64,000 bases of DNA from Schmidtea polychroa. Its lineage: Eukaryota. The notes under the pieces are model-generated. The model worked only from the letters and a program-made list of their open reading frames with translations. It was not told where the DNA came from and searched no databases. Where the stretch lies: NCBI GenBank assembly GCA_044892525.1, contig CM097885.1:33606001-33670000 (forward strand), read 5' to 3'. Of the stretch, positions 6,335-50,402 are shown piece after piece. The translations under genes were made by a program, and so were the position numbers. Numbering within the stretch: position 1 is the stretch's first letter; each line of letters begins with the position of its first letter.

Positions 6335-6363
6335 TTTAAAATGTTAAAATATCAGGGATTATA

Positions 6364-7656: not shown

Positions 7657-7693
7657 TTTTATAATAAAAATTTAAAAAATGACAAAAATCTGA

Positions 7694-7776: not shown

Positions 7777-7926
7777 CAACATAAAATAATATTAAAAATT
7801 TGAAAATAATAGTGTGGGTATCTTAGATTTATAAAGTAGTTGTATATTTTATTTATTTTTATTTTATTTTATTTATTTTATTTTATTTTATTTTTTAAAC
7901 ATAAATATGAAAAAAAATTATTGAAA

Positions 7927-8220: not shown

Positions 8221-8628
8221 AAAAAACTGTTGAGGGGACAGTGAAAAAAAATTTAATTTATATAATTTAAAATCAATAATCTGATAAAGATCAAATAGCC
8301 CTCTAACTTTTTCATAATGCCATTTTCTTTTCTATTCTCTTTTTAGTTTGAAGCTTTTGAGTTTGAGGCTTTAAAGATTAAGGGTGGTTGTTGTTTAAAA
8401 TATGGGGTTAAAATACTATAAAAGTATAGGTTTTATGTTGTTTTTCTAATGGTTTAAGCATAATGGAGGTATGTTTTAGTTGGGAGGGTTGTGTTGGTTG
8501 GGTATATATGAATGCATCTACTTTATATGGCTTACTTTTGATGTATGTGTTTGTTAAATTAATTTAATACAAACTTAGTCGCAATTCTCGGAAGAATGTG
8601 AATAATATTTAGACTAAAATTAACTATG

Positions 8629-12614: not shown

Positions 12615-12817
12615 GATTCAGTTGAATTTGGCTTGAAACTGAATTTACACAGTTAAATTAAATTTTAAATTTTAATTTTAATTCTTTTATTTTCATAAAA
12701 AATACTAATATCTCGTTACGGTGCAGCTGTATGAAATATTGAATTTTGAAATAATGAGTTGCTTTAGGCCCTAGAAATGACTACTTTTCCAGGAGGCAAC
12801 AAACAGCACTGTAGCAA

Positions 12818-19955: not shown

Positions 19956-20224
19956 AAGGGACATATTCAGTATTTAGCTATGAATTAATAATAGTTCCTG
20001 TGAATTTATATCGTTTTAGAGGTTTATTAGGTTGTGATGAATGTTATGGCACAGTAATTTAGATTTATGTTTTAGAACCAGTTTTTATTAATTATCCACT
20101 GTTTTATTAAGTCGTTTAGGGTTAATGATCAATTTACTTGGTTTTGACAATGAAATATTTGAAATCTTTAGAATTAATTGGGATTGATATCAAAGGTTAT
20201 TGCTTTAAATTATTTTATTTAAGA

Positions 20225-23200: not shown

Positions 23201-24772
23201 GATCATGTTTCTATTATGACTCCTTTTTTTTTTTTTTTTTTTTTTTGACTCGAACAAAGACAGAAATTTACTCCAAATGATAAAGACTTTCTACCAAAAT
23301 TATCAATGAATATATGTTGTTATTAATGATTATGCATTTCTCACTAAATTACCTAAGAATGTTTAACTAATATACATATGCCTTAATTAATATACCCTTG
23401 CGACATATTGAATATGACCAGTACCCTTACGACAAATACACATAAGGGAACAGAATATTTTGTCGGATAAATTCAGACTATATATAAAAACTTACAATAT
23501 GCTATGGTTTTTATTGATTAATTTGTTGTATATTGCATTGATTCATCAAAATGTCAGATAATATTTATAAATTAACTAAAAAAATACACAAAAATTCTAT
23601 ATTACCTACGAATTCTGTTATGTTTCAAGTTAAATAATTGGTATATGTATCAACTATATAAAAATTGTTATGAATACAAGGATATTTTAATTAAATGTTA
23701 CAACCAAAAACATGGATTTCTAACTAAATTTGTAAATTTATCTGGAAATATTTTACTTAAGAAATTGCTATATATTTAAAATAACCTTTCACTAAATTGC
23801 CTAAAGATTTGCTATACGGTATTGTTAAATAATCATAATAATAAAATTAAAAATAATAATATTATGACAGGGCATGAAAAATAATATGATTGTATGACTA
23901 ATAAATTTGCAATACAAGTGCATAATTAACAAAGACTTTGCAATAAATGGTCATGAATATTTTGTCGGATAAATTCAGACTATATATAAAAACTTACAAT
24001 ATGCTATGGTTTTTATTGATTAATTTGTTGTATATTGCATTGATTCATCAAAATGTCAGATAATATTTATAAATTAACTAAAAAAATACACAAAAATTCT
24101 ATATTACCTACGAATTCTGTTATGTTTCAAGTTAAATAATTGGTATATGTATCAACTATATAAAAATTGTTATGAATACAAGGATATTTTAATTAAATGT
24201 TACAACCAAAAACATGGATTTCTAACTAAATTGGTAAATTTATCTGGAAATATTTTACTTAAGAAATTGCTATATATTTAAAATAACCTTTCACTAAATT
24301 GCCTAAAGATTTGCTATACGGTATTGTTAAATAATCATAATAATAAAATTAAAAATAATAATATTATGACAGGGCATGAAAAATAATATGATTGTATGAC
24401 TAATAAATTTGCAATACAAGTGCATAATTAACAAAGACTTTGCAATAAATGGTCATGATTAACAAAGACATTAGAAATATTATATTTGCATTATGTTGAA
24501 GATGATTATGGCAGTAATATCAGAGGAGAATGAATGGACAGAGAAAAGCATCATTATGAATATTTCATGAATTGTAAATTTCCATATATATAAATATCAC
24601 TATTTCAAAAATTAATACAAATATTAAAACAAAATGAATTAATAATGAATGTTTTAATCAAAAAGTATTAGAATAAAACAATAAATTTATAAAAACAAAT
24701 TAAAACATTTATTTACGAAACAGTAATAACCAATACTACTGCAACATATAATGGCAACTTTAAAATATTGGT
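20225..24772 (+). repeat. Higher-order direct duplication containing 502-bp tandem units (3 + 2 copies)
   Basis: Copy A 20225-22743 has units at 20922, 21424 and 21926. Copy B 22744-24772 has units at 23453 and 23955. Confidence 0.95.
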
Positions 24773-25014
24773 TAGGGTTTCTTCTTCTTTTCGAGCATTT
24801 TGATGGTTCTTGAGAAGATCTTTTTCTCATTTTGATGAACTCATGGGTATCCCTTCATCATATCATCACCATTTGGTAGTTGCGCCCAATATATTTAATT
24901 ACCAAGATGATTTCATATTATTCAATGTTTGAAAATTTTCTACATTATAGTACCGTCATTATGGATGGTAATAATTCATTTGACTTTGATATTGTATTGA
25001 TTTGTATTGAGAAC

Positions 25015-25670
25015 TTACATGTATATAGTATGATATTCATTAATCAGTGTTGAACAGGCTTGACAATTGTGAACATTCTTCTCGTGACACTTAGAACAAA
25101 CAATTACGTGACCACACGGTAAATACAAAACCGAAACTTGATTTTCTTTACAAATTGAACAAGTTAAATACCTTTTCTTAACATCGTTTAGTTTTTCCGT
25201 TAGCTTATTTTCAATCAAATCGGCTTTTGCTATCCATTCATAAATCAATCTACTATATCCCGGTTTCAACCTTAAATACATGCAACTCCAAAAGCATTCA
25301 TTCAGTGAATCGTTGTTTACCACTGTTTTTTCTAAATACATTAAATAACTAGATAACTTTAAAATGCATTTATCATAATTAAATAAATCAATCAAATATT
25401 GAATAGAGGAATGTTTAAAAATTTTTAAAATATTTATGATTTCGTTATCAGTGTAAGTATCATGATTATTTATAAAATCTTCAACTGTGTTGAAAAATTT
25501 CAATGAACGCTTATCTTCGGAATAGGTTGGACTTAATATTTCCTTATTTCTAGTAGGATTTCCTTGCTATAAATGACATATATATAAAAATATTGACAAA
25601 ATAATAAAGTTACCAAATGTGTTTTGTGATTTATACATTCATATTCAACAGTGTTACTTGTTGAAATCAT
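25015..25670 (-). CDS. IAP-type C-terminal RING E3 ligase, predicted two exons (25670-25614, 25566-25015; 202 aa)
   Basis: CSIC..LYLPCGHVIVCSKC..CQAC..IYM at the extreme C-terminus. A 47-nt GT..AG intron (25613-25567) joins MISTSNTVEYECINHKTHL in frame to QGNPTRNK... Confidence 0.75.
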
Positions 25671-25912
25671 CAGTAATAAATAAATTTCTTAATAACTAAA
25701 TTACTTTTGTTTTTACATTTATAACGATTGAGATAGCCAATCAAATTAGAGTTTTCAAAATGTAGAAATTGTAACCATGGTTGAACCTTCAAATGTCTAA
25801 GTAACATCATATTGTATAACAATAATAATAAACATGACTAGTACCCTTGCAACCTGTTGAGTGTGAACAGTACCCATAGGGGGACAAAATATTTTGTCGG
25901 ATAGACTAGGAG

Positions 25913-25954
<42 letters not shown>

Positions 25955-26235
25955 GTAATAATAATAATAATATTGATAAAAACTTTGAAAATAATTTGAA
26001 AATAGTTTTTTGAAAATAATACTTTGAAAAATATTCGATGAAAAGTTCCTGAAATAATCATGAAAATGTTGAAAATCGTGAAAATATTGAAAATGTAGAA
26101 AATTATTAAAATAATCATACAAATGATGAAAATGTTGAAAATCATATAATTGACGTAGAAATTAAGTTTATAAATATTTAAGTAAATAATAATAATGAAA
26201 CTTCTAAATTAAAATAATAATTAGACCTTTGCAAA

Positions 26236-26266
<31 letters not shown>

Positions 26267-26486
26267 TCTTTGAAAATAATTCTTTGAAAATAATACTTTG
26301 AAAAATATTTGATGAAAAAGTTCTTGAAATAATCATGAAAATGCTGAAAATCGTGAAAATATTGAAAATGTAGAAAATTATGATAATAATGAAAATTATT
26401 CAAATATTCATGTAAATGATCAAAATGTTGAAAATCATGAAATTGACGCAGAAATTAAGTTTTATGAATATTTGCAATCATAATAG

Positions 26487-26623
<137 letters not shown>

Positions 26624-26975
26624 GTAATAATAAGAACTTTGAAAAACTGTTTGAAAATAAGCTAACGGAAATATTACTTTGAAAAATATTTGATGAAAAT
26701 GTTCATGTAACTAATGAAAATGTTCCTGAAATAATAATGAAAATATTGAAAATGTAGAAAATTATGAAAATGTTAAAAATCCATGAAAATATTAATAATT
26801 ATGAAAATCATGAAAATGTTGGAAATTATGAAAATATTGAAAATTATTAAAATATTAATACAAATGATAAAAATGCTGAAAAGCATGAAATGGACGTAGA
26901 AATTAGGTTTTATGAATATTTGCAAATTATAATTATAATAATAATAAGAAGAATTTTCAAAATAACTTTTAAATT

Positions 26976-27032
<57 letters not shown>

Positions 27033-27665
27033 TTGATTAAAACTTTGAAAATAATAATAATAATTTTAATCTTCCGCGCGGGCGTTCTTTCTCAATAATA
27101 ATGATAAATTGAATAATTACATAATCGATAATTTAAACAAACATAATCGATAATTAAAACAAAAAAAAATAATATAATCAACGATTTAAACAAAATGAAA
27201 TTATTGTGTTATAGTGACCAATAGAACAGTTATGAACTATCATTTGCATATATACAAAATATAAAAATTAAATTGATTGATCATATTGAAGTTTTCAATA
27301 ACTCTATTGTTGAAAATAAAAAGAATATGAAAATTATTGATAAGAAGCATGATTATTTGTTAAAAAAGATTGAATTATTATTAAGAGAAATTCAAACAAT
27401 CAAAGGATCAATAGAATATCTGAAAATCAATTCGACGTTACCAATTTCAAACAATATTGCTGCGAATAGTAGTACATCAATATTTAGTTTACCTTTGTTA
27501 ATTTTACATTATTTTATTGTTTAAATAAATGTATGTTTTGTTGATTTGTTTAATAATACCCTTGTGACTTGTTGAGCGTGACCAGTACCCTTGCGAGCAT
27601 TACCCATAGGGGGACAAAATATTTTGTCGGATAGACTCCGGGCAGTACCCTTGCGAGCATTACCC

Positions 27666-28058
<393 letters not shown>

Positions 28059-28139
28059 CAAAGTCGTACCTGATTGGATGATTGACAAATCACCCGCAAA
28101 TTACTTAGTAAATTTTGAACATTTTTGAAAATTTTAACC

Positions 28140-29398
28140 ATAAATCAGTCTCTGACTAAAAAATTAATAACTTTTGTACCACTGATGATAAAAATTATTT
28201 CTATGGCTTAAAAGATAGATTTTCGTCTGGCCTTCAAAATGATGTATAAATATTTAAATAATTTTGAAAACTCAAAAGGTTCTGGGAAGTCAAAAGGTAG
28301 GTCACCGCTAGATCACTTAATAATAATATGACCTTGAAAATAATAATATTTTGAAAAATAATAATAATTTTAACCAAATTAGTGTCTGATTAAAAAATTA
28401 ATAACTTTTGTACCACTGATGATAAAAATTATTTTAATGGCTCAAAAGATAGATTTTCGACTGGCCTTCAAAATGATGTATAAATATTTAAATAATTTTG
28501 AAAATTGAAAAAGTTCTGGGAAGTCAAAAGGTTGGTCACCGCTAGATCACTTAATAATATTTTTGAAAAATAATAATAATTTTAACCAAATTAGTGTCTG
28601 ACTAAAAAATTAATAACTTTTGTACCACTGATGATAAAAATTATTTTAATGGCTCAAAAGATAGATTTTCGACTGGCCTTCAAAATGATGTATAAATATT
28701 TAAATAATTTTGAAAATTGAAAAAGTTCTGGGAAGTCAAAAGGTAGGTCACCGCTAGATCACTTAATAATATTTTTGAAAAATAATAATAATTTTAACCA
28801 AATTAGTGTCTGACTAAAAAATTAATAACTTTTGTACCACTAATGATAAAAATTATTTCTATGGCTTAAAAGATAGATTTTCGTCTGGCCTTCAAAATGA
28901 TGTATAAATATTTAAATAATTTTGAAAATTGAAAAAGTTCTGGGAAGTCAAAAGGTAGGTCACCGCTAGATCACTTAATAATATTTTTGAAAAATAATAA
29001 TAATTTTAACCAAATTAGTGTCTGACTAAAAAATTAATAACTTTTGTACCACTGATGATAAAAATTATTTTAATGGCTCAAAAGATAGATTTTCGTCTGG
29101 CCTTCAAAATGATGTATAAATATTTAAATAATTTTGAAAATTGAAAAAGTTCTGGGAAGTCAAAAGGTAGGTCACCGCTAGATCACTTAATAATATTTTT
29201 GAAAAATAATAATAATTTTAACCAAATTAGTGTCTGACTAAAAAATTAATAACTTTTGTACCACTGATGATAAAAATTATTTCTATGGCTTAAAAGATAG
29301 ATTTTCGTCTGGCCTTCAAAATGATGTATAAATATTTAAATAATTTTGAAAACTCAAAAAGTTCTGGGAAGTCAAAAGGTAGGTCACCGCTAGATCAC
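28140..29398 (-). repeat. 212-bp tandem array in right TIR of element C (5 units + partial)
   Basis: Reverse-complement units end in GATCAC at 29398, 29186, 28974, 28762, 28550 and 28316. Confidence 0.95.
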
Positions 29399-30084
29399 GA
29401 TAATTAAAACAAAAAAAAAAGTTCTTTGTTTCAATGACCTTGATGAGTCATTGTCTTTGTTAAAAATTTGACCTTGAAAAAAAAATCTTAAAAAAATTTT
29501 TCCTGCCGGGGGGGGGGGTGGGGGGGGGGTAGGTGATCTAGCGGTGACCTGATCTAGCGGTGACCAATCCATCTACTGTCTGGTAATGAAAAAATAAAGA
29601 TTTACAACAGAAAAAATGGGAAACTGATTATAATTTAGATCACACTACTGATGTGGTGTTACATTTACTTGAGAACTATCTCGATAAGGAATTCACGGTT
29701 TACATGGGTAATTTTTATAATTCTGTTACTCTTACGAAACTGCTAAATACACGAAACACTTATGTGTGTTGAACCCTACGAAATAACAGAAAAGGAAACC
29801 CCAGAGATGTAGTAAAGAAACTGAAAAAAGGGGAGTGTATTTGGTCCTGTTACTGTATGCAAATGGAAAGACAAACAAGATTTCCTTACCATTTCAAACA
29901 TGCATATTGTTGAAGTGTTAGAGGTGTCCAATCCCAATGGAAAACTTTCTATAAAACCAAATATAATTCAAGATTACAAAAAATGAATTGTAATTGCATT
30001 GACCGATCAGATCAAATGCTGTCGTACTACACATCTCTAAGAAAGACTAGTATATAGCCCAAAAAGATTTCTCTACATATTATT

Positions 30085-34264: not shown

Positions 34265-35888
34265 GTTGAGGATACCTTAATAATAAAATTAAATAATTAT
34301 AAAAGCGAGAAAGTTAATGGGGGCAAAAGGTATAAAATAAAGAGTATGTAGCTCCAGAATTCTGAGAAGCAGGGATGATGGGAGGAAATAGAAAAATGAA
34401 AAGGAAATGGCAAAAAGTCAATAAAACTAAACCATTAAATACGGCAAGGTCCTTCTTAATTAACAAATACAAAAAAAGAACTAAAAACAAAATCAAAATT
34501 AAATTATGATATTTCGACAACTGTCAGCGAAAATAAACAAATTATGGATGACCTAAGAAAATGAGCTGAAAGTAAAAATTATAATCTATGAGTGTTATGG
34601 GATAGCAGAAAATAAAAACAAAACAAAATTTGAATTTGGAAACGCAATGCGTAAAGAACAAAAAACCCCAAGTTTATAAAGAAGAAGAAGACAGGCAAGA
34701 AAACAGAATTAAAACGAAACGCAAAGTGATATATATTTCCAAATTATTTCTTATCTTAAAATAATTAAAATAAATATTAATAATTATCACTCGTTATCAC
34801 TGATATTTTGGATTTTGATTATTGGTCAATTATCAAATAATAGATTTTAACAAAATTAGCTATTGTACTAAATAATAAAAAATAAAGAAAAAAAAAGAGT
34901 AAAAATAAAGAATATTTTTATTTGATTGTACAATATAGAAAACATTATTTCTAAGACATTTTAGTACCTCAAAACTAAAGTAAGATAAGAACGTTTATGA
35001 AGCAAATTTTATACTGATTTAATTCTTTTTTTATATTGCATTGTAATTGTAATGAAGAATAATATTATAAATATCACAAGTATGTAGTTAGGAGCTCCCT
35101 GCAGCAATGACCCCCGGGGGGGGGCGGTTCTGCTGCAACTTACATTTTTCTGCTTTTTGATTACATAATTGCTGCAGGGACCTCCACTTTTTTTCTGTGA
35201 TTTTCAATACAAAAATTTTTTTTCAATACAAAGTAATTTTTTTCTGACTATAGTGAGGGGGTCTCCTTGGTCCTGAGAATTTCAATAGAAATGGGTTTAC
35301 ACTAAAAAAGCATGGATTTATTCAGACTATAATGAGGGGGTCTCTTTGGTCTTGGGATTTTCAATAGAAAAATGTGGTCTACACTAAAAAAGCATGATAA
35401 ATTTTGAATTAAAGCAAATTATGGATCTAAATATTTAATTACAGTAAATTGTGGGCTAAGATTTTCGAATTACAGTAAAATATGGTCTAAAAATTAAATT
35501 AAAGTAAATTAAGGTTCAAAATTTAAAATTAAAGTTAATTAGGGTCCAAATTTTTCAAATAAAGTTAATTAAGGTCCAAATTTTAAAATCAAGTAATCAA
35601 TGGTCAAAAACTTTAAAGTTAAAGTAATATTTTTAAATTAAGTAAATTAAAGTAATAATTTTTAAATAATTAAAGTAATGTAATAAGTAAATTAAAGTAA
35701 GATTTTAAAATTTATTAACAAAAAGGTTGAATAACCAACAGCTTCTGAGAAATAAAATTTTTTAAGATAATTTTTAATGAAACTTTTAATGAAATAATTT
35801 TCAAAGTCCATTTTTAATAGAAATTTTTATAGTTTAATTTTTTTAAGTCAATTTTTAATGGAATAATAAAAATAGTAATAATAATAGT

Positions 35889-37709
35889 TGTAAGGAGTTT
35901 GTAAATCTCTATATAAAATTAATATGGTTAAATGTAGAAGTGAGATCAGTTAGTAGAAATAATTATTTCTGTTAAATATTTATATTTAAATTCTATATTA
36001 AATTATATCATATTATATTAAATTATATTAAATTAAATCAATTAAATGTATGACCAGTAATTACATTAATATTAATAATTATCACGCCTCGGTGTTTAAA
36101 TATTCTAGTAAACGGCTCAATTTTTGAAGTTGTTATAAAAATAAATGCTTGAAGAAGACTTGAATTTAATTGCGTCTAACATGGCGACCACGACCACGGA
36201 TTTATTGATAAGCAGATTATTACCTGAGAAATTTCACAAAGGCGATGATTTAGAAAATTTTATCAAGGATTGTCAGGGCGATTAAAAACTAGATTGTTAA
36301 CATTGATGACCGAAAATAATGGAAATGAATGGCAAAGAGATAATGCAGAAATACAAGATATAAAAGATCAAATAAATGAAAGGAAAAATAATAAATATAT
36401 ATTAAAAGGAAATATTATCTATACCAATCAAAACAAAATATGGATACCAGAAACAAAAAGACGAGAAATGATTAAGGAAACACATTTATTATTATGCCAC
36501 GCAGAAGTAGAAAAAGTTATGAAATATATTAGGAACAATTTTGATATGGAAGATTTGCTAAATGAAGTAAAAGAGACTATTTCAATATGTGAAGTATGTC
36601 AGAAAAACAAAGTTTTAACTACAAAGTCAAAAGAAAAAACCCAAGTAATTCAAGCTTCAGAACCTATGGAGAAAATATACATGGATATTTGCGGTCCATT
36701 AAGAGAAACCTTCAGAGGAGAAAAATATATTTGTGCAATAATCGATCATTACAGTAAATACATATCTCTAACTCCTGTTAGAAAGCAAGATGAAAATACA
36801 ATAAAGGCAGTTTTGTTAAATAATTGGATATTGAAATTTGGAGTCCCTAAGGAACTACATCTTGATTGTGGAAAGAATTTCGAAGCAAATAGTATTAAAG
36901 AACTAGCAAAGGCAGGAGGAATTGAGATGATATTTTCGAGTCCGTATCATCATAATACTAATGGTGTAATTGAAAGACAATTTCGTACTATAAGAGACTA
37001 TATTAACGCGTCACTCAGAGAAGGAGTTAAAAAAAGCTGGGCAGAATTAATACCTGATATAGAATACGTTTTAAATGCGACATCTCAAAAAACTACTGGA
37101 GTGAGTCCAGCAGAAATTATATTTGGAAAAAAGATTAATAGATCGCAATGGCATAGTAATAATGAAGTGGATAGAAATGAAATCATGCGGAAATTAGAGG
37201 CTAAAAGACAGCAAACAAAAGAAATTGGCACAACTAGGAACTTAGAAGTGGGGGACAAAGTATTGGTGAAACAAGAAATTAGAAACAAAGATCACGAGAG
37301 ATATGAAGGACCATATACAGTAATAAAACGAAATTATGAACAGATTATAACAGACGAAAACGGGAGAAAAATAACGAGGAATATAGAAAAGTTAAAGCGT
37401 TTTAAAGAAGGGGGGATGTAAGGAGTTAGTAAATCTCTATATAAAATTATTATGGTTAAATGTAGAAGTGCGATCAGTTAGTAGAAATAATTATTTCTGT
37501 TAAATATTTATATTTAAATTCTATATTAAATTATATCATATTATATTAAATTATATTAAATTAAATCAATTAAATGTATGACCAGTAATTACATTAATAT
37601 TAATAATTATCACGCCTCGGTGTTTAAATATTCTAGTAAACGGCTCAATTTTTGAAGTTGTTATAAAAATAAATGCTTGAAGAAGACTTGAATTTAATTG
37701 CGTCTAACA
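35889..37709 (+). mobile_element. Internally deleted Ty3/Gypsy LTR element
   Basis: 293-bp TG..CA LTRs at 35889-36181 and 37417-37709, nearly identical. TSD ATAGT, PBS TGGCGACCACGA, PPT AAAGAAGGGGGGA. Confidence 0.95.
36270..37421 (+). CDS. Gypsy integrase (intact 3' part of pol)
   Basis: HHCC (THLLLCH..CEVC), DDE (YMDICG, HLDCG, IERQFR) and GPY motif. The true start is uncertain. Confidence 0.88.
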   Translation: MSGRLKTRLLTLMTENNGNEWQRDNAEIQDIKDQINERKNNKYILKGNIIYTNQNKIWIPETKRREMIKETHLLLCHAEVEKVMKYIRNNFDMEDLLNEVKETISICEVCQKNKVLTTKSKEKTQVIQASEPMEKIYMDICGPLRETFRGEKYICAIIDHYSKYISLTPVRKQDENTIKAVLLNNWILKFGVPKELHLDCGKNFEANSIKELAKAGGIEMIFSSPYHHNTNGVIERQFRTIRDYINASLREGVKKSWAELIPDIEYVLNATSQKTTGVSPAEIIFGKKINRSQWHSNNEVDRNEIMRKLEAKRQQTKEIGTTRNLEVGDKVLVKQEIRNKDHERYEGPYTVIKRNYEQIITDENGRKITRNIEKLKRFKEGGM

Positions 37710-37714
37710 ATAGT

Positions 37715-37864
<150 letters not shown>

Positions 37865-37871
37865 GTAATAA

Positions 37872-37912
<41 letters not shown>

Positions 37913-37989
37913 TGCTATAAAACACATAAAAATTTTCCAAACACATAAAAAGAACAAAAGTAAAGATATAAAATTTTTATTTAATACAA

Positions 37990-40690
37990 TTAATCTTCAT
38001 CTGAGAAAATAACATCATCAATGTCAACTTCTTCATTATCTTCTCTAACATCTTCTCCAACATCTTCTATATAATTTATTTGACTTAATCTTACATGGCC
38101 ATATGCAAAACTAGTATTTTTCCCCACCCAAACCCTTTTGTCATCTGCGTTAGTTAGAGCTATTTTAGTATTTTTTATTGTATAAATTTTATGGTTTTTG
38201 CTTGTTATTTTTGTTTGAGGAATCGAAAAAATTTGATTTTTATTGTAACAATCCAGGTATGACTGATGTTTTATGTCACTACCTTTCAATGTTACACCTT
38301 TAGCCTTTTTTGTTTCCTCATCACCCAACAAACTATAACATTTAGGTCTAAGAAAAACCCATTCCTTTTATTTAAGACCTTTATTCTCGTCTTTGAACTT
38401 TCCAATGACCGAATCAAGGTTCTTACTATATAAGGAATGACAAGTATCGTAATTGGACTTGTCTAACAAATTATCGCGGATCATTGCAGGTAAAAGAATC
38501 TCAAGTTTACAGTTAATAACTCCCAGGAAAAAAGAATCCGTAACACCAGCAACAATATTAATTTTACAATAAAACTCATTGCGATATTTTTCTAAATCGT
38601 TATATTCCAGTTTATACATTCTAAGTTTAGATAGATCAAGTACAGGCTGTCCAATGTAACTTGGTCTATCTAAACATATAGAATCTGGATTTAACAAAGC
38701 TGCTTTTAATTTATCGTCGATTTTAATAGATTTTTTAAACGAAGGTTTAGAAGTATATTTGACTAATTTACTGTCAGTTGTACAAAGAAGAAGATTCATT
38801 CTTCTCTTTAAATTTCTACAGTTTTACCATATAAACTGTTATTTAACAATTTGTAATAATTTTTATCTAAGCTATTTGTACTTTTTGCTCTTAATTCAGT
38901 ATTGGTGTCTATGTATTTTTTAAAAATTGGAGATTGTTTAAACCTTACAGCTCTATTTACACGTGTAACTTTAACACCAAGTGCTAACTATAATTTTAAT
39001 AATCTCCAATGAATCAAATAATTAGATTTTGGAAAATGAGTTAATAACAATTTTTCAACAACGATTCAAGATTTTAATTCATATATTCATCCATTATTAA
39101 ATCAAATCCATTAAGAACCCAACTAAATTCGCGACAAAGTAATGGTTGACTTAAAGCCCAACCGTAAAGATTATTAATATCAATATAAAGTAACTCGGTG
39201 TTTTCATCGATTTTTACATAATGTTTATTTACAAAAGTAAGACCTCCTCTTATTCCACCTTCATAAAAGCTAAACATTTCGTTTTCAGTTATCAATTCAA
39301 TCGATTCATCTAAGAACATTAAAGAAGAAGACCAAGACATACCATGAATTCCGAAATAATTCAATGGTTCTAACTTATTGTGAGCAATAGATTTCAAACG
39401 AAATTGTCGGAAGAAATCAGCCAAAAGAAAACAATCAAGTTTTAAGTATATCATCATGTAGTTACGCAGTTAGTTTCAACCCAAATCTTTTGTCCAGCGC
39501 GTGTTTATATCTAAAACCGTTCAAACACCGCTGGCACCATAATGAACGTATTCGTGTAGGACAACTAGTTTTGATAATTTATTATTATTAAATAAAGGAA
39601 AGAATTTCCATTACATAGCTATAAGCAACTTAAATAGGTTAATGAATTGTGTTAATTATAGTTCCATTTAAAACTTTGGAACGATGTATAATATACAAAT
39701 GCGGATGTTTTAATACATAATTTTCTGTTAATTGTCTATTATTGTCATAAGTAAAAACATTAATTATTAGACCTGGATTTTGGCTTCAGGTTTTCTAATA
39801 TCTTTTAGTTTCATTGGTAAATCTGACGAGTCGTATGCAAGGTCGGATAACTTATAACTCGATATCCTATTTCTAACATAACTACTAACTTTTAATTTTA
39901 AAATAGCTAAAATGCTATATAAAAAACATGAATCATCAATGTTTTTTATATTAATTAAACATTTTTTTTCAGAAAAGATGGTGTTTCAATAAAACTCATA
40001 CCACTTAACCTACTTAACCTACTTATTTTAGTTATCGTGAAATGAATTTCAGTTATATTTTTTATTAGCCAACTACTTCCTAACTCGGTTATGCTTGTTA
40101 TTTTTTCATTTAATTCCCTAATGCCTCAGTCGAAAAATGACGCAGTTAGAGGTTTCGCGTTATTAGAGATAGTATTAACTTTTATTTCCCCGTCTTTTTC
40201 AAATTCGATTTTTATTCCGAATTGAATTTTGACGGAGCCTAATTCATTAATAATATCTCTTAATTTGTTTATTAACGATTTAAATCGGTAGTATTTAAAC
40301 TCAATATCTGATGGGTACCTCTTAAATCGCGTTGAACTATTGGTACATATCTACCTTCTTGTATAGTATTTAATCCATCCCAAGAATCAAGTGAAATGTT
40401 GTCAAATCCATCATTGGATTCAAAATCATTTAATCCATCCCAAGAATCAAGGGAAATGTTGTCAAATCCATCATTGGATTCAACAACCAATCCGTCCTGG
40501 GATTCGACAAAATGCAATTCGTCCTGGGATTCAACTACGTCTAATACAACCTGGGATTCAAAAGAAGAAGTATCTAATTTAATTTTTTTATTTGTAATAT
40601 TTATTTCTACGGTTGAGGGTGTTTTAAAAACTGTTTGTACTAAATCACTTTTTTATGTTTTTCCACCCAAATACATTTCAATAGAGGAAC
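37990..40690 (-). pseudogene. Protein-primed family B DNA polymerase (pPolB), fragmented
   Basis: GIRGG, YIDINNLYGWALSQPL, KLLNNSLYGK, GVTDSFF (decayed DTDS), GKFKDE, LRPKCYS, KAKGV and DDKR. Multiple stops, frameshifts and deletions. Confidence 0.93.
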
Positions 40691-41441
40691 CAACAATAAT
40701 TGGTTCAATAATATTTGTATAGATCATCAATTGTTGATTACGTTGTAGTATTTCAGTTTCTTTAAAACCAATAACCTTCTTCTAACAATCCTAAACTATT
40801 AGCTAAAAATTTACTAAAAATTACAATTTTAACGATTTTTCCTTTTTGAATATAAACAGATTTAAATGGACGAGGATAAATTGCTGATAATTGATCATTT
40901 ATTTGTGAAAGATCTGTAATGATTTTTTCTTCAAATGTATCGGTAAACTCAACATCATAATAATACTGTATCGGATTGTATCAAACTTTATTTTTCGATT
41001 AATTGGAGGAATAGTGATTTGATTCAAGTTTTCTTTAAAATTTATTTCTTTTTCTGAAAATCCTAATTTTTGTGCTTCTTTAATACTATCAAATTCTACT
41101 TTAAAAGGAAAATATTTACAATTAATGTTCAAAGTATTTCCATCAATATATATTAAATAAAATAGCGAGTCGTGACTGATTGTATATTCATTTTTTTCTT
41201 GGTTAAAGTAAAAGTATTCATAACTTGTATGTAATACACTTTTACTGTATTTAACATTTGAATTATTGTAAAAAGGAAAAGTATTATACACAAAGGTAAA
41301 ATCCGTTTGAGTTACTTCCCATTCACCATCTAAGTAAATAGGATTTTTAATTTCAACATTAAATTTACTAGCTTCATTATTTGGATGAGTCTGAGGACAA
41401 CTATTAGAAGGCAAATTCACATAAAAATCTTTTTTAATCAT
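40690..41441 (-). pseudogene. Penton paralogue 2, 3'-truncated
   Basis: FYVNLPSNSC..NEASKF..LDGEWEV. Ends after LMIYTNIIEPIIVG at a probable deletion junction. Confidence 0.8.
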
Positions 41442-42441
41442 TTATTTTACGAAAATGTAATGTCAAGTGCGTTTTTGTATCTTTACTAAATTTTATTAAT
41501 TTTCCACTATCATCACGTATATTGATTTCAATGTTGTTTATAGAAGAATTAGAAATTGGTAGATACATTGAATTCTTCATTTCTAATTGCAGAATTTCTC
41601 CTTGTTCGTACATTTTTATCCAAATAGATTTCAATAACGGAACTCTTACATCCCCAACGGTCAATGGTTCGATAATATTTGAGTAAATAAACATTTGTTG
41701 ATAATGATTAAATAATTTTGGAATTTTTGATCCAATAATTTCTTTCTCTGTAAATGTTTGTTTCTTTAATCCCAATGTTTTTGTTAAATTTTTATCAAAG
41801 GTTATTTTAACCAATTCATTATTTTGTATTTTAAAATCTTTAAAGGGAGACGGATTAATTGTCATTAACTGACCGTGTATTTCAGATAAAGTATTGATGT
41901 ATATTGATGTATAATTCATCTTCTAAATAATGTTCAAATTTTGTTTTTTCAACAACACTTATAATTATACCAAATTGATCAATTGTTTTATCTTCTGTAA
42001 ATTTTGGTAATTTAATTCGAAAATGATCACTATCACTAATAACCGATACTGATTTTAATCCAAATTTAAAAGCATGTTCAAAATCTGGAAATGTTATTTT
42101 AAATCGAACATGTGGTCAAACAACAACTAAATTCTCACATCTTTCAATGAACATGTCAACTTCAGGAGTATTTGTAGGGTTTATTACTTCAAATGTTCGA
42201 TTTGAATTATTTATTCTAAAATATTTAATTTCTTCATCCATATTTACATTTTCATTTTGTATCAGTGAATTATTATAATAAGGAAAAGTATTATACACAA
42301 AGGTAAAATCCATGAGAGCTACTTCCCATTCACCATCCAAGTAAATAGGATTTTGAAATTCGACATTAAATTTACTTGCTTCATTTCAGGGAAAATAAGA
42401 GGACAACTATTAGAAGGTAAAATAGTATAAAAATCTTTCAT
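41434..42441 (-). pseudogene. Penton paralogue 1, frameshifted
   Basis: MKDFYTILPSNSC..LDGEWEVAL ... MFIYSNIIEPLTVGDVRVPLL ... IEINIRDDSG..LTLHFRK. Confidence 0.85.
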
Positions 42442-42446
42442 AATAT

Positions 42447-43519
42447 TTATTTAATCAATTGATTTTCGGATATCCAAGTTGGAGTTTCATATCCATGCCA
42501 TTTAACATAATATTGTTTATATTTACCATCTTTTTTGGTTTTTAAAATCTTTTGAATTCTAAATATTGTAGGAGCAGAAATAACTTGGAGTTCTTGTTCG
42601 TAGAATTTACCAGTGATTGGTTTGTTTTCATGATAAACTATCACATATATAACAGGATTCTGTTTTGTATCGATTTTCAAAATTTGATATACTTCATCAC
42701 TCCAATTATTATCAAGGTTTTTGATGAATGGCGAAGAATTGATTTTACTAATTCTTACATGATCACCAACCTTGTATTTTGGTTTATTGATGTTTTCTAT
42801 CTTTGTTTTTTAGTAAAATCAACAGGTGTCCTTTTAATCCTCTATGTGGCGAATGATTGTAACTGAAAATAATTTTTGGCAAAACATTTATCCAAGTTTT
42901 ATTACCTTGATATACAAAATATATTTCAATCTTTCTCTTAAAGTTTGATTAAATCGTTCTACGTGAGCAGCTTTGAACTGAGAAAATACTGAGTAGTGGT
43001 TTATTCCTTTGATAACCTCTTTAACTTTGCTGTTATAAAATTCTTTACCTAAATAAAATATTTAAAATTAATTTATTAAATTTAATTACCTAAATCCGTT
43101 TGTAAATTAATAGGTTTGCAATCTGCAAATATTTCTTTTATCCCATCAGCCATTTCATTTGCAGATTTAGTTTTTGTAGGAACAACACGAGCATATCTAT
43201 TAAAAACATCAATACAAGTCAGAATATATTTGTATCCCTTGTTAATTTTTGAATAAGGTATTATTTCCATCAAATTCATTTGCCATACATCATTGTTTCC
43301 AATTGTTTTGTATGGTCTTGTTGGAAATCGTTTCAACATTGGTTTATTTAAACTATATGCTAATTGATTAGATGGCCATTTCTGTGTTTCTTTCTTTGAA
43401 TTATTCACTCGTTTTGTTAATTTTCCTACACCACCAAAACCATCTGGATCTTTTGGGTTTGTCCATATTGTTTTTCTCTTTTTCTCTTTTATTTTCTCGT
43501 TTGTTTTCACCTTTTTCAC
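42447..43519 (-). pseudogene. Polinton integrase with C-terminal chromodomain and a 41-nt intron
   Basis: YILTCIDVF, LQTDLG|KEFY, VERFNQTL, GKFYEQELQ, chromodomain YYVKWHGY...WI. Frameshifts present. Confidence 0.9.
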
Positions 43520-43625
43520 TTTTTTTCATTTTTGTTTTGTGATACGTTTCCTTCATTATTACAACACGTTGTCAAAATATTAAAATCTGCAATAATTTTA
43601 TTTGGTAATGAACTCTTGATACCCA

Positions 43626-43951
43626 TTACGAACTTAATGATGAGATTGCACTAATTGCAGATAAGACTATAGGAATTAGTGCACCCAAGAACCCGCCTTT
43701 TGTTTATATATTATCTTTCTTATTAGACGACGATTCTTTGTATCAACTAGAGATAAAAGCGATCTTTTATGTCTTTGCAATACTAATCTTTTAGCTTTAG
43801 TTATATTTACATTACCACGGACAACATTTATAATAACTTCAAGCAAATCATCAATAACAAATGATGGAAAAGACTGAAAAATCGATATTCGTTTCGGATT
43901 TGATGCCTTTATTAAAACATTAAAATACGGTAAACTTCATTAAAATTTCAT
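43626..43951 (-). pseudogene. Polinton core/membrane-active precursor remnant
   Basis: LLEVIINVVRGNV...KQKGGFLGALIPIVLSAI, the recurrent QxGGFL motif. The 5' end is disrupted. Confidence 0.65.
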
Positions 43952-43980
43952 TATTATTATTAATTTACGCGACGGATTGT

Positions 43981-44115
43981 TTATAATTTGATCCACTTCT
44001 TGATTTGTTTCTTAGTTTTCGTACTTTTCTTAATTTTCTTTGAACGTTTTGTTTTCTTGTTAATTTTTTTCGAAACACTTGGAAGATTTTTAACAACTAC
44101 TTTTTTAAATGACAT
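43981..44115 (-). CDS. Small lysine-rich putative DNA-condensing protein (44 aa)
   Basis: MSFKKVVVKNLPSVSKKINKKTKRSKKIKKSTKTKKQIKKWIKL, co-oriented between the ATPase and core genes. Confidence 0.45.
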   Translation of the reverse strand: MSFKKVVVKNLPSVSKKINKKTKRSKKIKKSTKTKKQIKKWIKL

Positions 44116-44138
44116 GATTAATTAAATTTTAATTGTTT

Positions 44139-44749
44139 TCAGTTTTGTTTATAAATCGTAGCACCGTTTATATTAAAAATATCTGTTCTAATACGCATAT
44201 CATCTGGACATTGTTGTGTAAATTCAAAAAATAAATATCCATGAGGAATTTTTGTCGCATCTTGGAATGAATCTATCAAATATTTTCTATTTTTTGGATA
44301 AGCTTGTCTTGCAAGAAAATCAATTATTGTTTGATCTCTAGGATTTTTGAAAATAATTAAATATTGGACATTTAAATTACGAGTTGTATGATGAAAAAGA
44401 TTTTGTGTTATGAAAATAGCTGTAACTCCACAATGTCTACTGATTTTTGTAAATAAATTATTAAAATTTATAATTTATTTGCCTACTGGTATAGATCATC
44501 GATAATAATAACATCGCCTTGGCGTAATCTAGATGACCAATTTTTATCAAATCCTCTAATTATTGTCATTTTTAATTTACAGAAACTGCTTTGAGTTAAT
44601 CCATGTTCTTCATCTGCACCTCGATTCCAATATATTTTATTAAATTTTGATTTAAACATGTTTGATTGTAATAAATTACATACAAATAAAGTTTTCCCAC
44701 TTCCACTATGTCCTACAATTTGATATACCGCGTCATTTCTTAAGTCCAT
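44139..44749 (-). pseudogene. A32-like packaging ATPase, disrupted
   Basis: GHSGSGKT, IIIDDL, then a stop. It continues as FTKISRH..FITQNLF..IIFKNPRD..PHGYLF..RIRTDIF. Confidence 0.9.
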
Positions 44750-44801
44750 TTTAATTAAATTATTTAATTTAATTTGTTTATAATTAGAATAATTTCATAA
44801 A

Positions 44802-45277
44802 ATGATAAGCAACATTAATTATAGAGGAAGATGTTTAGTAAATGGAATGAATTTCCCATCAGGAAAACCTCAACATGTTGTGGACAGAAGCGGAAAATAT
44901 CCAATTTTGTTCTTCAAGAGCGGGAAATGCAGGGTAATGGGATGTAAGAAACCATTACAAGAAGGTGATCTCAAACATCAGATTCAAGATTTACAAATTC
45001 AATCAATTACATTAACGTTAGATATCGGTACATGCATTGATTTAAATGCATTGTCAGTGAAAACCAGTAGTTACTACGAGCCTGAAATATTTCCAGCTTT
45101 ACGTATTCTCAGTATAACCCTCTATGTGTAAATGTTTTTTCAAGCGGTAAAGTGGTTATATTAGGGATTAAAACCTTTCATTATTTTAATCAAATTCATG
45201 AAATTCAGAAATTCATTAAATCATTAACTATAAATATCACAACAAATGAAGAAATATTGGAATATTTATTAAGTTAA
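44802..45277 (+). pseudogene. Divergent TATA-binding protein homologue with a single frameshift at ~45111
   Basis: Repeat 1 ILFFKSGKCRVMGCK. Repeat 2 IDLNAL..YYEPEIFPALR, then after the frameshift CVNVFSSGKVVILGIK. Compare TBP ALIFSSGKMVCTGAK / YEPELFPGL / LIFVSGKVVLTGAK. Confidence 0.85.
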
Positions 45278-45332
45278 TTTAATTAATTGTGTTTAAATTA
45301 ACTGAATATCTACAAAAACATAAATTCAAAAA

Positions 45333-45680
45333 ATGGATGACGATAAGCAAGCATATATATTCCAAACAATATTAATAAAGATGGAAGAATTGTTCCCGAA
45401 TATAAAGAATAAACTTTCGTATTGCGCTCCAGAATTATTAGCTTATAGGATCAAGCAATTAACGGGGATCAATATAGAAGAAATTATACGAAGGCATAAC
45501 GAATCTGTTCAAGAATCAAGATTTAAATGCCTAGATGATTGCGAAGTATGTATGGATCCAATGAAATTACCATGTCCGTTTAGGTGTAGATGCTGCCAAG
45601 AATATAAGATGAAAGAAATTGTTCATATTTTACTGGCAGAATTAAGAAGAGCTTATTATAAGCAAATATTGGATGAATAA
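45333..45680 (+). CDS. Hypothetical Cys-rich protein (115 aa)
   Basis: Intact ATG ORF with CLDDCEVC..PCPFRCRCC. The stop overlaps AATAAA. Confidence 0.6.
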   Translation: MDDDKQAYIFQTILIKMEELFPNIKNKLSYCAPELLAYRIKQLTGINIEEIIRRHNESVQESRFKCLDDCEVCMDPMKLPCPFRCRCCQEYKMKEIVHILLAELRRAYYKQILDE

Positions 45681-45779
45681 ATTTTTATCTTTACTTTTGT
45701 TCTTTTTATGTGTTTAGTTATGTGTCTAGTTATTTTTTATGTGTTGTATAGTATTTGGTGGAAATAATAATAATATTAC

Positions 45780-46847
45780 TGTTGAGGTAAATAAATTAAA
45801 ATAAATTTAAATGAAATTTAAATGAAATTTAGGTTAATAATTTAAATAAAAAGAAAGTGAAAAAAAAGACAAATAAAAGCGGGATCATGCACAGAATCGA
45901 TAGTAAAGGAAAGTGTGATGGAAGCAGTATTAGAAAATGCCAAAAGCAATTACGAAAGGCAAGAATCCGGAAATCCGAGAAAAATCAATAAATGGTAAAA
46001 TAATCGAAATCGAATGGGGAAAACGGGACAGGTATAGAGTAGCTAATGGTCAACAAGATGATGATTAGGGATTTATCAGAAAATGGTTAGGAAGGGTCGA
46101 AAAGCATTCAAATGTGTAAAAACAGAAAATGTTAATTAATTAATTAATTGGCTAATAGAAAACCCGAGCTAATGGGAAACCCGAGCCAATGGAGAACCCG
46201 AGAGATGAAGGAAACCCGAGCTGGGTAAACAAGAAGAAAAGTAAAAAGAAGGAAGATTTGGGCCCATTAGCTTGACACAATGAATTATTGGAAAAAAGCA
46301 AGGAGAAGATAGTGCGTGTAGAAAGGCCGGAAGAGCCATTAATTATTTTGGCTCGTTGGACCATTGTGGGTGACAGCTGAAGCAGATATGTGGAAGCAAA
46401 TGTCAAGTGAAAGATTGGCTCGGCAATAACCATATGTTATCCCGATTTCGAGGAGTATATAAGGAAAGGGAAAATCAGAGAAAATTGGCATTTTGCCTCA
46501 GGTAGGGTAAGAAGAAACCGAGCTTAGGAAAAGGCGAAAACGAATTTAGGAGATTAGGGAAAAAGAAGAGATAGAATAAGAATAAAAAGCGAGAAAAGGA
46601 TCAAATCAAACAGAAAAAGTGGAAAACGTTGGTCAAGAGAATCTAAGAGAATAAAAGGTGAATATTATCTTTATCAAAGCTTCAACACCGAGCGGAGAAT
46701 CGGTCAAACGTAACTTTGATTATTAATTGTAAAGTGGTGAGAAAAGATTGTGAATTTGTTATTTCAATATACGTTGGGTCATTATCGTTTTGATTTAAAG
46801 GACACGAGGAGTCAGAGGGAACCGACTTAAATTAACCAAAAACCCAA

Positions 46848-46849
<2 letters not shown>
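45780..46849. mobile_element. Probable solo LTR (~1070 bp)
   Basis: TGTTG...CAACA termini and a purine-skewed non-coding interior. Interrupts the (TAA)n tract of the right TIR. Flanks TTAC/TTAT. Confidence 0.6.
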
Positions 46850-46922
<73 letters not shown>

Positions 46923-47269
46923 GATTATTATTATTATTATTACTAATATTATTCCATTAAAATTTTCATTAAAAAATTTTAATTATCAAGCACCGTCTAT
47001 TATTCCAACTTTTTGTTACTAAATTTAAAAATTATTACTTTAATTTAAAATCTTTGACCATTGATTACTCAATTTTAAATTTAGAACCTTAATTTACTTT
47101 AATTGAAAAATTTGGACCTTAATTTACTTTAATTTAAAATTTTGAACCTTAATTTACTTATTTGGCCCATTGATTACTTTAATTTAGGTATTAATTTACT
47201 TTAATTCAATTATTAGACCCACAATTTACTTTAATTGAAAAATCTGAGCCCATAATTTACTGTAATTCA

Positions 47270-48210
47270 AAAATTTACTACGCTTTTTGAGTGAAGATTC
47301 CCTTTTTGTATTGAAAATCTCAGGACCAAGGAGACCCACCTTGATTTAATGTAAACCACTTTTTGTATTGCAAATATCCTCAGACCTTAAATTACTATGG
47401 CTTTTTTAGTGATAGACAGAGTTTGTATTGAAAATATTCTGAGACCCTTAATTACCACTCTTTTTTATTGAAAACCACTTTTCCTATTGAAAATCCCAGG
47501 GCCAAGGAGAACTCCTCACTATAGTCTGAATGATTCCATGCTATTTTAGTTTAAACCCATTTTTGTATTGAAAATCCCTGGACCAAGGAGACCCACTTTA
47601 ATTTACTTGGAAAAATCCATGCTTTTTTAGTGATAGACGAATTTTCTATTGAAATTCTCAGGACCAAGGAGACCCCTTCACTATAGTCTGAATAATTCCA
47701 TGCTATTTTAGCGAGGACCCTTTTGTTTATTGAAAACTATCTTTTTGTATTAAAACTCCCAGGACCAAGGAGACCCCTCACTATAGTGTGACTAATTCCA
47801 TGCTTTTTTAGTTTAAACCCATTTTTTTATTGAAAATCCCTGGACCAAGGAGACCTCCTCACTATAGTCAGAGAAATCCTTGGCTTTTTAGCGAGGACCC
47901 TTTTTTATTGAAAACTATCTTTTTGTATTAAAACTCTCAGGACTAAGGAGACCCCTCACTATAGTGTGACTAATTCCATGCTTTTTTAGTTTAAACCCAT
48001 TTTTTATTGAAAATCCCTGGACCAAGGAGACCTCCTCACTATAGTCAGAGAAATCCTTGACTTTTTAGCGAGGACTACCTTTTTGTATTGAAAATCACAG
48101 GACCAAGGAGACCCACTTTAATTTACTTGGAAAAATCCATGCTTTTTAAGTGATAGACGGATTTTCTATTGAAATTCTCAGGACCAAGGAGACCTCTCAC
48201 TATAGTCTGA
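47270..48210 (+). repeat. Expanded ~60-bp subterminal repeat array in right TIR of element D
   Basis: Recurrent CCATGCTTTTTTAG..TATTGAAAATCCCAGGACCAAGGAGACC..CACTATAGT. Only about 2-3 copies are in the left TIR (35240-35400). Confidence 0.9.
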
Positions 48211-50402
48211 AAAAATTTATTTGTATTGAAAAATAAATTATGTATTGAAAATCCCAGAAAAAAAAGTAGAGCTCCCTGCAGCAATTGCCTAATAAAAAAG
48301 CAGAAAAATGTAAGTTGCAGCAGAATCCCCCCCGGGTCGTCATTGCTGTAGGGAGCTCCTAATTACCTACTATCACACAATGAATTAAACTAATCTATTA
48401 TATAACAATATGTCAAAATCGTAGTTTAAAGATCAGAGTTTATTTATGATGTTTGATGGTTGTTTTTTAATGTTGGAATGTATGTGTGTTTGTAGGAATT
48501 CTGTTTCAATAATATGTAAACCAATAAGCTCCCATTTTAGATATTATACAATGAAGACCTGGAGATTTGTTTACCTAAATAAGATTTGTTACAACTATGT
48601 CTCTTCTTAACACCAATAAAAATTTTTTTTAATTTTCCATGTATGTTTCTTATAATTTTTAGTTGTTTAGAATTGTGTAACTTGGAATTTTTTAATTAAA
48701 GTATTATGAATAAATAGTTAAACATACATGGCAATGATTTAATTATAAGAAAACGTCAATCAAACATTCTTTTCACGATATATTTTGACAGTTTTCCTGT
48801 CATCATCAGGTAGGATATAATAACTATTTTTTGTTCATTGTATGTATTGATTGTTGTTGTTAAATTAAATATTTAATAAAATTTTTAAATTATTAAATTA
48901 AATTCTAAATGTTAAAATTTTAAAAATTAATGTATTATTTTAATTATAATTTTTAAAAAGAATGAAATGTTTTTATTAAAAAATTTTTTTTTTATAGAAT
49001 TAATAAAATTAATAAATTTGTTTAAAATCCTTATCATGCTGTAAAGAATAATATAAACCTTTCTATACTTTTATTGTTTTTACTATTATTTTTTTTACCT
49101 CGTCATAAAATTTAAATATTTTATTTTCATCGAAGAGTATGCAAATTTTCAAACTAATTCGAAATGAAATAAACTAACAAAAAAGCGAAGTTAAATAAAA
49201 GTTTGTAAAGTATTGTCGAGTATTTATAAACTTTTTCCATTTAAACAAATTAAACATTATATATTTCTCTCTTTTTCTATATTTTTTGTTGACAATAAAT
49301 CAATTACTCTAAACTTTAGAGTCTAAAGTTTCATAAATAAACCGATAGTTCCCTTTAAAAAAATATGATATTTTTCAAAAATTAGAGTGTGGGTTATACA
49401 TGAGGTGCGGACTAGCTAATGAGAAAATTAAATTCTAATATAAAAAAACAAATAAAATAAAAACATTTTCAACGAGATAATTTATTCAATTAAAGCAATT
49501 AACATTTTTATCCGATTTGATATCAACTTTTTGTTGATTTAAGTTACTTTCATCTTCAATACTTTCTAGATCCTTACTTGTAACTGCATTATATTTGATT
49601 TCCTGAAGTCATACTTTCTGGTGTTTTAAAATCCCACGATTGTATAATTTAATGACAAACCTCAATATAAGAAGCTTTTTTTATATTCCCGCCTTTATTA
49701 TAGTTATGATATACACTATGGCTGCCCAAATTAACGATTGAAGGATTTTTAGCGATTAATTTATTTTATAACGATTAAATTTCAAACATTTTTCTTGATT
49801 ACTAACCGAAGTAATGTTGATATTAATAATATTTTATTTTTAACTATTAATTAATCATTAATTATTGGAGATTAATAGTCAAATAAGTTATTATTCGTTA
49901 AATTAAATTAAATTAAATTAAAATTTTTTTTAAATAAAATTATTTTTTTATGTTGTTTGTTTATTCAACTTGATGTTTTATTTGATAATCTAAGAGTATA
50001 TAAATTATAAATTTTGAAATAATATATGCATAACAAAAATGTAATTAAATTTTGTGTGAATAGATAATATTGATTTACAGAATATTAAATAGTGAAAATT
50101 TAGTTTCAAATCGAAATACTCTATTTCATAATCCTAATAATATTTCGTTATATTAAATTTAAATAACTAAAATTTAGGTATAATTGTTATATTTTGCATT
50201 ATTTTTTCCATTTGAATTAAAATAAATCATTTATAGACAGATAATCTGACTAATTAAATATAAAATTTGGAATACAACCTATTTTTTAAAAATTTTACTT
50301 TTATAATTCTTATTTAAATTTTAAAATCTTTATATAATTTTGTGTGCTGATTGTATTTTTAATATTTGATTTAATTATACTAATCTAAATATTTATTTTT
50401 TC

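Follow-up and report, generated by a model that had tools for sequence, protein, structure and literature searches.

Polintons are regarded as ancestors or relatives of many DNA viruses of eukaryotes; by what means are their capsid genes activated? The question arises anew in the window analyzed here, a 64,000-nt stretch of DNA in which one Polinton copy harbors a gene for a protein resembling the TATA-binding protein (TBP; 44802..45277, plus strand). Does this gene belong to a functional lineage, and which promoters would its product read? The original prediction, made from the sequence of this locus, had proposed a private transcription system. TBP is named for this virus group in the legend of Fig. 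5 of PMC8502044 (Starrett 2021) and in the preprint 10.1101/697771. However, the accessible portion of PMC8502044 holds no analysis of the TBP gene, its spread or a promoter word, and one of its supplement files returned no match. Beyond the two Starrett versions, no study of a Polinton TBP or promoter word was retrieved from a literature search covering openly accessible article text, and a search for TBP or a TATA word yielded no match in the accessible portions of PMC11071296, PMC11071308 and 10.64898/2026.06.19.733378. Our analysis now offers one small protein and one 8-bp word as a testable pair.

A TBP-like gene in a decayed Polinton and its sister copies

The hallmarks of a Polinton, namely AGT...ACT ends, terminal inverted repeats (~312 bp at 84%) and a 6-bp target-site duplication (ATCACA at 35073..35078 and 48372..48377), delimit a copy of 13,293 bp (35079..48371) that encloses the TBP gene, as had been predicted. 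On its minus strand we mapped an A32-like packaging ATPase gene (44139..44749; the sister copy matches PF04665 at E 7.9e-7), the matched part of an adenovirus protein X-like (pX-like) gene (43691..43951; sister copy PF05829, E 2e-6), an rve integrase gene with a chromodomain, in pieces (42447..43465), two broken tandem minor-capsid (penton)-like genes (40617..42441), whose label derives from position, size and a weak match to the small capsid-module gene of the other Polinton, with no fold behind it, and remnants of a protein-primed DNA polymerase B (37990..40634; PF03175 at E 1.4e-4, under the cut-off). The integrase profile PF00665 likewise scored under the cut-off in this broken copy, and both genes are long open frames in sister copies. 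Downstream of the TBP gene lies a Cys-rich 115-aa ORF (45333..45680, plus strand) that has no Pfam match and is 28-34% identical to those of other families of this genome. The ATPase, integrase, minor-capsid-like and polymerase genes are all split in the window copy, major capsid and core-protein genes gave no match there, and an inserted LTR element (35889..37709, plus strand), whose 293-bp LTRs are 99% alike and which carries an integrase ORF of retroviral type, is foreign to the TBP system. The window copy of the TBP gene and of its Polinton is a dead relic. Elsewhere in the window, we noted a nested inverted repeat (15895-29565) with perfect arms of 1,060 bp (17070-18129 and 18896-19955) inside arrays of a 212-bp unit, a RING-domain-like ORF within this structure (25015-25566), and an intronless 361-aa ORF (11532-12617, minus strand) that by eye resembles a host peptide GPCR.

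The TBP gene itself is frameshifted, with the break between about 45100 and 45130. The peptides quoted in the original prediction are encoded within 44802-45277 on the plus strand, the first in the frame starting at 44802 and the last in another frame. When both pieces were read separately, Pfam returned PF00352 over the cut-off for 44802-45128 (E 1.2e-8) and under it for 45086-45274 (E 0.0027). In place of a mended window frame, protein analyses used a natural unbroken sister copy, P0001 (158 aa from its Met). The head-to-head arrangement of the TBP and ATPase genes was confirmed, with 52 bp between their start codons (ATG at 44802 and 44749, respectively), and this layout is not constant among relatives.

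A search of the host's own genome (781 Mb, AT-rich) returned 3,730 candidates; 136 of the best 150 matches, which were the ones scored, retain a stop-free frame of 170-177 aa, and the full TBP frame was found in 28 of 30 fetched loci. The gene set of these sisters comprises pPolB, a RING protein, a protease, a 407-aa capsid protein, a core-like protein, two penton-like proteins, an integrase with a chromodomain, a pX-like protein, the ATPase, TBP and the 115-aa ORF. It includes the Polinton capsid module, with a PF04665 ATPase, a PF00770 adenain-like protease and the 407-aa protein, which has no Pfam match and is predicted to be a double jelly-roll capsid protein (pLDDT 79; iridovirus, mavirus and PBCV-1 capsids matched at E 4e-15). 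Fold-back copies were observed in three of nine fetched regions, chosen partly for paired opposite-strand matches; these contain two inverted copies of the arm that reaches from the capsid gene to TBP and the terminal repeat, and lack the polymerase arm, an organization resembling that of snap-back defective genomes. A short GT-AG intron is predicted in the integrase gene of the window's family, which is unsplit in other families, and the protease gene of the window's family may contain a 5' intron. The split integrase frame of young copies of this family looks like this predicted intron rather than a break.

Four further families carrying a TBP gene (51-63% identical), head-to-head with the ATPase gene, were identified in the genome, making five in total. 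A protein search retrieved 123 relatives, the 120 listed being 35-68% identical, and a profile search yielded 63 cluster representatives at E<=1e-30 and 818 at 1e-10, a set whose tail includes cellular TBPs. Another Polinton gene lies beside TBP in 35 of 80 metagenome loci, including 18 of the 20 contigs of at least 4.5 kb; in these relatives, the TBP gene sits before the ATPase gene, after the capsid gene or head-to-head. The single match among viral contigs was discarded, as it is an ordinary TBP at 29% with no adjoining Polinton gene.

Structure, residues and descent of the encoded protein

The P0001 protein matches PF00352 at E 3.4e-16 over two stretches, and its predicted structure (pLDDT 95, pTM 0.84; 100-row alignment) adopts the two-lobed saddle, so that both profile and fold place it in the TBP family. 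All 44 Foldseek matches listed at E<=0.001 are TBP chains, and structural comparison reached a Z score of up to 12.7 (rmsd 2.5 over 145 aligned residues, with model residues 1-147 on yeast 66-240), the next unrelated fold scoring 6.3; absence of a TBP fold, which would have spoken against the original prediction, is thereby dismissed. That prediction had also claimed both TBP repeats. Repeat 2 is indeed complete, but repeat 1 is much reduced: in the model the C-lobe is entire, and the N-lobe consists of strands only, with both helices lost and no helix in residues 1-74. Longer N-lobe segments occur in a deeper branch of these TBPs, so that the N-lobe reduction is stepwise and helix loss is not universal.

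The anticipated set of intercalating Phe, two in repeat 2 and one in repeat 1, is present and conserved. Among 103 divergent relatives, F38 is kept in 98, F97 in 102 and F113 in 102, corresponding to yeast F116, F190 and F207. Phe is not among the five commonest residues of these relatives at the F99 position, near which F18 (91 of 100) is found, and the four-Phe set of cellular TBPs is incomplete to this extent. The C-lobe glutamates that contact TFIIB are E93 in 91 relatives (Asp in 6 more) and E95 in 102. On the DNA face, fixed changes comprise R44 (98; yeast V122), M46 (101; T124), N111 (102; L205), S/T68 (102; N159) and Thr/Ser at V161 (100). Further yeast positions considered are E186, I194 and V203. 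Yeast numbering was mapped via alignments and Table 1 of PMC12529657. In cellular TBP, C-lobe glutamates bind TFIIB and Brf, and a basic patch on the N-lobe binds TFIIA, TAF1, Mot1 and Brf (PMC7221094); the helices with this patch are missing from residues 1-74 of our model. Docking of host TFIIB via the kept glutamates is likely, judging from their conservation. No TFIIB domain was detected by Pfam in 32 element or neighbor proteins, in a scan where a host-type TFIIB-like gene did score. Separately, an intronless TFIIB-like gene gave at least 13 matches in the genome, with open frames of 301-310 aa, on contigs C3 (~38-39 Mb) and C1 (~23.8-24.2 Mb), some of them arranged as a tandem unit of 7.9 kb. 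Certain of these matches have fragments of a Polinton integrase or polymerase at a distance of 0.5-2 kb, an adjacency likely due to chance since such fragments are common.

Regarding descent, dN/dS among 70 natural frames had a median of 0.34 and a maximum of 0.50 (246 pairs with dS of 0.1-1.5, from Nei-Gojobori counts, for which saturation is likely at high dS), and the median was 0.17 in 13 pairs with dS<0.8. Identity between the element TBP and an exon of one host paralogue is 27%, and at E 1e-4 no match was obtained with the main TBP exon of the host. In a quick tree of 127 rows between 135 and 300 aa, without named giant-virus TBPs and with SH-aLRT support only, a midpoint root and no one-clade test, a branch with 99% support and a length of 0.78 changes per column sets the element TBPs apart from a side made up of six TBP-type frames of the host, four cellular TBPs and an unassigned protein. 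On the element side, those four families of this genome that were tested cluster together at 98%. Together, the spread over families and loci, dN/dS of at most 0.5 and the long branch argue that the gene is old in this lineage and not a host retrocopy. The host genome also contains, besides its intron-containing TBP, several divergent TBP paralogues, two of them with open frames of 212-215 aa.

The putative promoter word ATAAACR

We compared the 110 nt upstream of each core gene, merging near-identical regions before counting. Of 73 upstream regions, 70 carried the word ATAAACR in sense orientation (4.5 expected from dinucleotide shuffles) and none carried it on the antisense strand, counts that were made in the regions where the word was found and that are not independent, since these regions are related by descent. 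Their top 6-mer is that of the same word (70). By gene, ATAAACR precedes ATPase in 23/23 regions, pX in 9/10, integrase in 11/13, penton-like in 9/9, core in 8/8 and capsid in 10/10. The distance is 31-49 nt in all 23 ATPase regions and never below 31 nt from the ATG for any gene, a floor that fits the TATA-to-start spacing of ~30 nt. The preceding base is T in 50 cases, C in 15 and G in 5. Where one gene directly follows another, the word falls within the coding part of the preceding gene and biases its codon use: Ile-Asn is spelled ATA-AAC in 32 of 52 instances within the last 130 nt of genes, as opposed to 7 of 124 in gene bodies.

The decayed window copy still keeps the word on the minus strand at 44782, 44172, 44153, 43985, 43708, 42521 and 41542. 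As TATAAACA, it occurs 32 nt upstream of the ATPase start (44775..44782; a candidate late promoter), ~33 nt upstream of the pX-like gene (43978..43985), at the 3' end of pX ahead of the integrase region (43701..43708), within the 3' end of the integrase gene ahead of the first minor-capsid-like gene (42514..42521) and inside the first penton-like gene upstream of the second (41535..41542); two ATAAACR words also lie in the ATPase 3' end (44146..44172).

TBP genes have a different upstream signature. ATAAACR was found at 2 of 47 (2.0 expected). A canonical TATAWAWR precedes 25 of 47 (7.5 expected), in most cases by 31-49 nt, and equally many, 25 of 47, have an initiator-like TCABT close to the ATG (4.9 expected). 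The canonical TATA is missing from the 110 nt upstream of the other 22, and none is evident in the 52-bp gap of the window's family. We found no p53 half-sites upstream of the 47 TBP genes (0.6 expected), and CCAAT showed a weak excess (14/47; 8.2 expected). Among held-out genes, ATAAACR precedes 10 of 13 copies of a gene that we labeled exonuclease-like and 3 of 5 protease genes. Two ORFs without annotation carry it in 0/4 and 1/9 cases and canonical TATA in 4/4 and 6/9, and the remaining held-out genes are mixed or blank for the word (4/20, 3/17, 1/8 and 0/6). The polymerase promoter lacked it in all three cases scored, with unsure gene starts. Among four sequence runs inspected for expression, all of them contigs and three presumed to be RNA, one covers non-coding parts as well, and another has poly-T ends that possibly reflect internal priming.

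For comparison, we inspected elements devoid of TBP. A second, unrelated Polinton of the window (371-9400; PLA2-integrase, PF21738 capsid and A32 ATPase), in which no TBP gene was seen, has ATAAACR upstream of none of its eight genes (window 1-9 kb), and the word was not found upstream of capsid or integrase genes at 30 further loci of this type (one region masked, some starts unsure), a negative control that consists of one distant family only. In this TBP-less family, several capsid and integrase genes have a TATAAAAATG-like or TTTAAAATG-like word immediately before the ATG. In the quest for close TBP-less relatives, scans of viral contigs and prokaryote genomes with capsid or ATPase proteins or alignments retrieved no relative, and a search of the host genome with a distant capsid protein returned only the TBP lineage, including the fifth family, which carries TBP. 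These searches yielded no Polinton of this lineage that lacks TBP, so the word may be a marker of the lineage rather than of TBP. Collectively, these sequence comparisons support the reading of a private transcription system, which gains an apparently matching promoter word upstream of the putative late genes. The word ATAAACR also aids in locating gene starts in these elements.

A putative private promoter system, its rivals and its known counterparts

We consider it probable that the reduced TBP serves as a switch from early to late expression by binding (T/C)ATAAACA and recruiting RNA polymerase II and TFIIB of the host. The TBP gene would be read early by the host machinery, as suggested by its upstream region, in which the word is missing and a canonical TATA box and an initiator-like word are frequent. 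Its product, through the changed DNA face, would recognize a box in which position 7 is C and position 1 is relaxed, and would dock host TFIIB by the kept C-lobe glutamates; without the N-lobe helices, it would be released from TAF1, Mot1/BTAF1 and TFIIA. The N-lobe reads the 3' half of the TATA box, and at this half departures from the norm coincide in the word (C at position 7) and in the protein (F99 lost, Arg at V122). Recognition of TATA by TBP entails two kinks and Phe pairs (PMC10005294). If this reading is true, the element TBP would favor ATAAACR over TATAAAAG, with C favored at position 7 and position 1 tolerated (words TATAAACA, CATAAACA and TATAAAAG). We also lean, if only slightly, toward the broader view that this widespread lineage has the smallest private Pol II promoter system, made up of a ~150-aa TBP without host-control surfaces, (T/C)ATAAACA and host TFIIB, by which all virion and integration genes would be turned on.

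A match between protein and word would imply an early-late cascade as in lytic viruses, which would argue that Polintons act as autonomous nuclear viruses, and it would explain the timing of late genes in these Polintons without an RNA polymerase of their own or a helper virus. It would further represent a third, independent viral-TBP solution beside those of herpesviruses and giant viruses, and provide a natural TBP with altered specificity, useful for studies of TBP-DNA recognition and for orthogonal promoters.

Alternatively, a factor of the host, whether its TBP, one of its TBP paralogues or a Forkhead protein, might read the word, and the element TBP would then act as a decoy or repressor by sequestering TFIIB or occluding promoters. 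ATAAACA fits the Forkhead consensus, but GTAAACA, the other common Forkhead word, appears in 1 of 73 regions and ATAAACG in 5 of them, and ATAAACR is confined to the sense strand and observes its 31-nt floor. The loss of one intercalating Phe and of the N-lobe helices would suit a decoy, which, on the other hand, needs no invariant new DNA-face residues. The host does possess several divergent TBP paralogues, and a TATAAACG box kept 27% activity with a plant host TBP (PMC10005294), which indicates that host TBP can use such a word; however, C at position 7 is kept, and canonical TATAAAA (3/73) and TATAAAT (5/73) are rare despite the AT-rich DNA. We regard this explanation as rather unlikely. 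It is also unlikely, in our judgment, that the protein reads the word with other partners, be they element cofactors, a captured TFIIB-like gene, Brf and Pol III, or the polymerase of a helper giant virus. Such partnerships have precedents, since giant-virus TBPs are accompanied by their own TFIIB, Brf1/2 contact the same glutamate (PMC7221094) and herpesvirus ORF24 requires five viral partners (PMC12529657). The genome offers candidates as well, in the multi-copy intronless TFIIB-like genes, some near Polinton fragments, and in several unannotated ORFs that accompany the TBP gene. Nonetheless, both glutamates are near-invariant here, compared with ~40% for one of them in giant-virus TBPs (PMC7221094), the 32 scanned element or neighbor proteins contain no TFIIB domain, no single unannotated ORF occurs in more than 27 of 93 loci (many contigs being short), and a GT-AG intron, predicted for the integrase of one family, is suggestive of nuclear Pol II.

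A role other than transcription, such as tethering the integrase to its targets or binding genome ends in replication or packaging, would be in keeping with the proximity of TBP to the ATPase gene in the families of this genome and with a retrotransposon integrase that targets via TBP/Brf1 (PMC8632968). We deem it very unlikely, given that the position of the TBP gene varies among relatives and that the word lies upstream of genes, with only 1 of the 13 sites of the window copy in a terminal repeat region. Finally, the frameshift and the intronless structure of the window copy are what a recently captured host TBP retrocopy decaying neutrally would display, a scenario to which we grant next to no probability. 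The mostly unbroken sister frames, the occurrence in five families and in distant Polintons, the purifying selection, the 27% identity to the host paralogue exon and the placement beyond the long branch, outside the cellular TBP group, refute a recent neutral host pseudogene for the family; that description is true only in that the window copy is dead.

The favored reading, a reduced TBP that would recruit host TFIIB to its own word, can be set against known systems. The element resembles Polintons/Mavericks and adintoviruses in its terminal inverted repeats, 6-bp duplication, pPolB, rve integrase, A32 ATPase, double jelly-roll capsid, adenain-like protease and pX-like gene (PMC8502044). With cellular TBP and its paralogues (PF00352), its TBP shares the saddle fold, F116, F190 and F207, P191, N69 and the E-P-E of the C-lobe stirrup, but it is only ~27% identical, lacks F99 and, in this branch, the N-lobe helices, and has invariant R, M, N and S/T on the DNA face. 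Nucleocytoviricota likewise encode a TBP fold in which the host-regulator surface of the N-lobe is not conserved (PMC7221094). The best match in a viral structure library is the TBP of Heterosigma akashiwo virus (E 3e-8, 18% identity), and the structural matches show 9-19% identity. However, these viruses mostly have their own TFIIB and vary at the TFIIB glutamates (PMC7221094), whereas these Polintons keep both glutamates and have no TFIIB gene in the scanned proteins. The late system of beta- and gammaherpesviruses, represented by KSHV ORF24 and TATT late promoters, has in common with the Polinton a virus-encoded TBP fold with a polar DNA face, changes at several shared positions (yeast V122, T124, V161 and L205), a variant TATA word upstream of virion genes and the use of host Pol II, the latter being proposed for the Polinton (PMC12529657). 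ORF24, however, is a 752-aa protein with four Phe that lacks the TFIIB glutamates, binds Pol II directly and acts with five viral partners (PMC12529657), whereas Polinton TBPs span 145-170 aa and have three Phe and both glutamates. The 158-aa protein, with its TBP fold at 1-147, has no Pol II-binding N-terminal domain as in the herpesvirus-type pre-initiation complex, and a Pfam screen of element proteins revealed no partner activators of herpesvirus type. By analogy, the Polinton TBP would work most like the herpesvirus late system, yet it is not a member of it.
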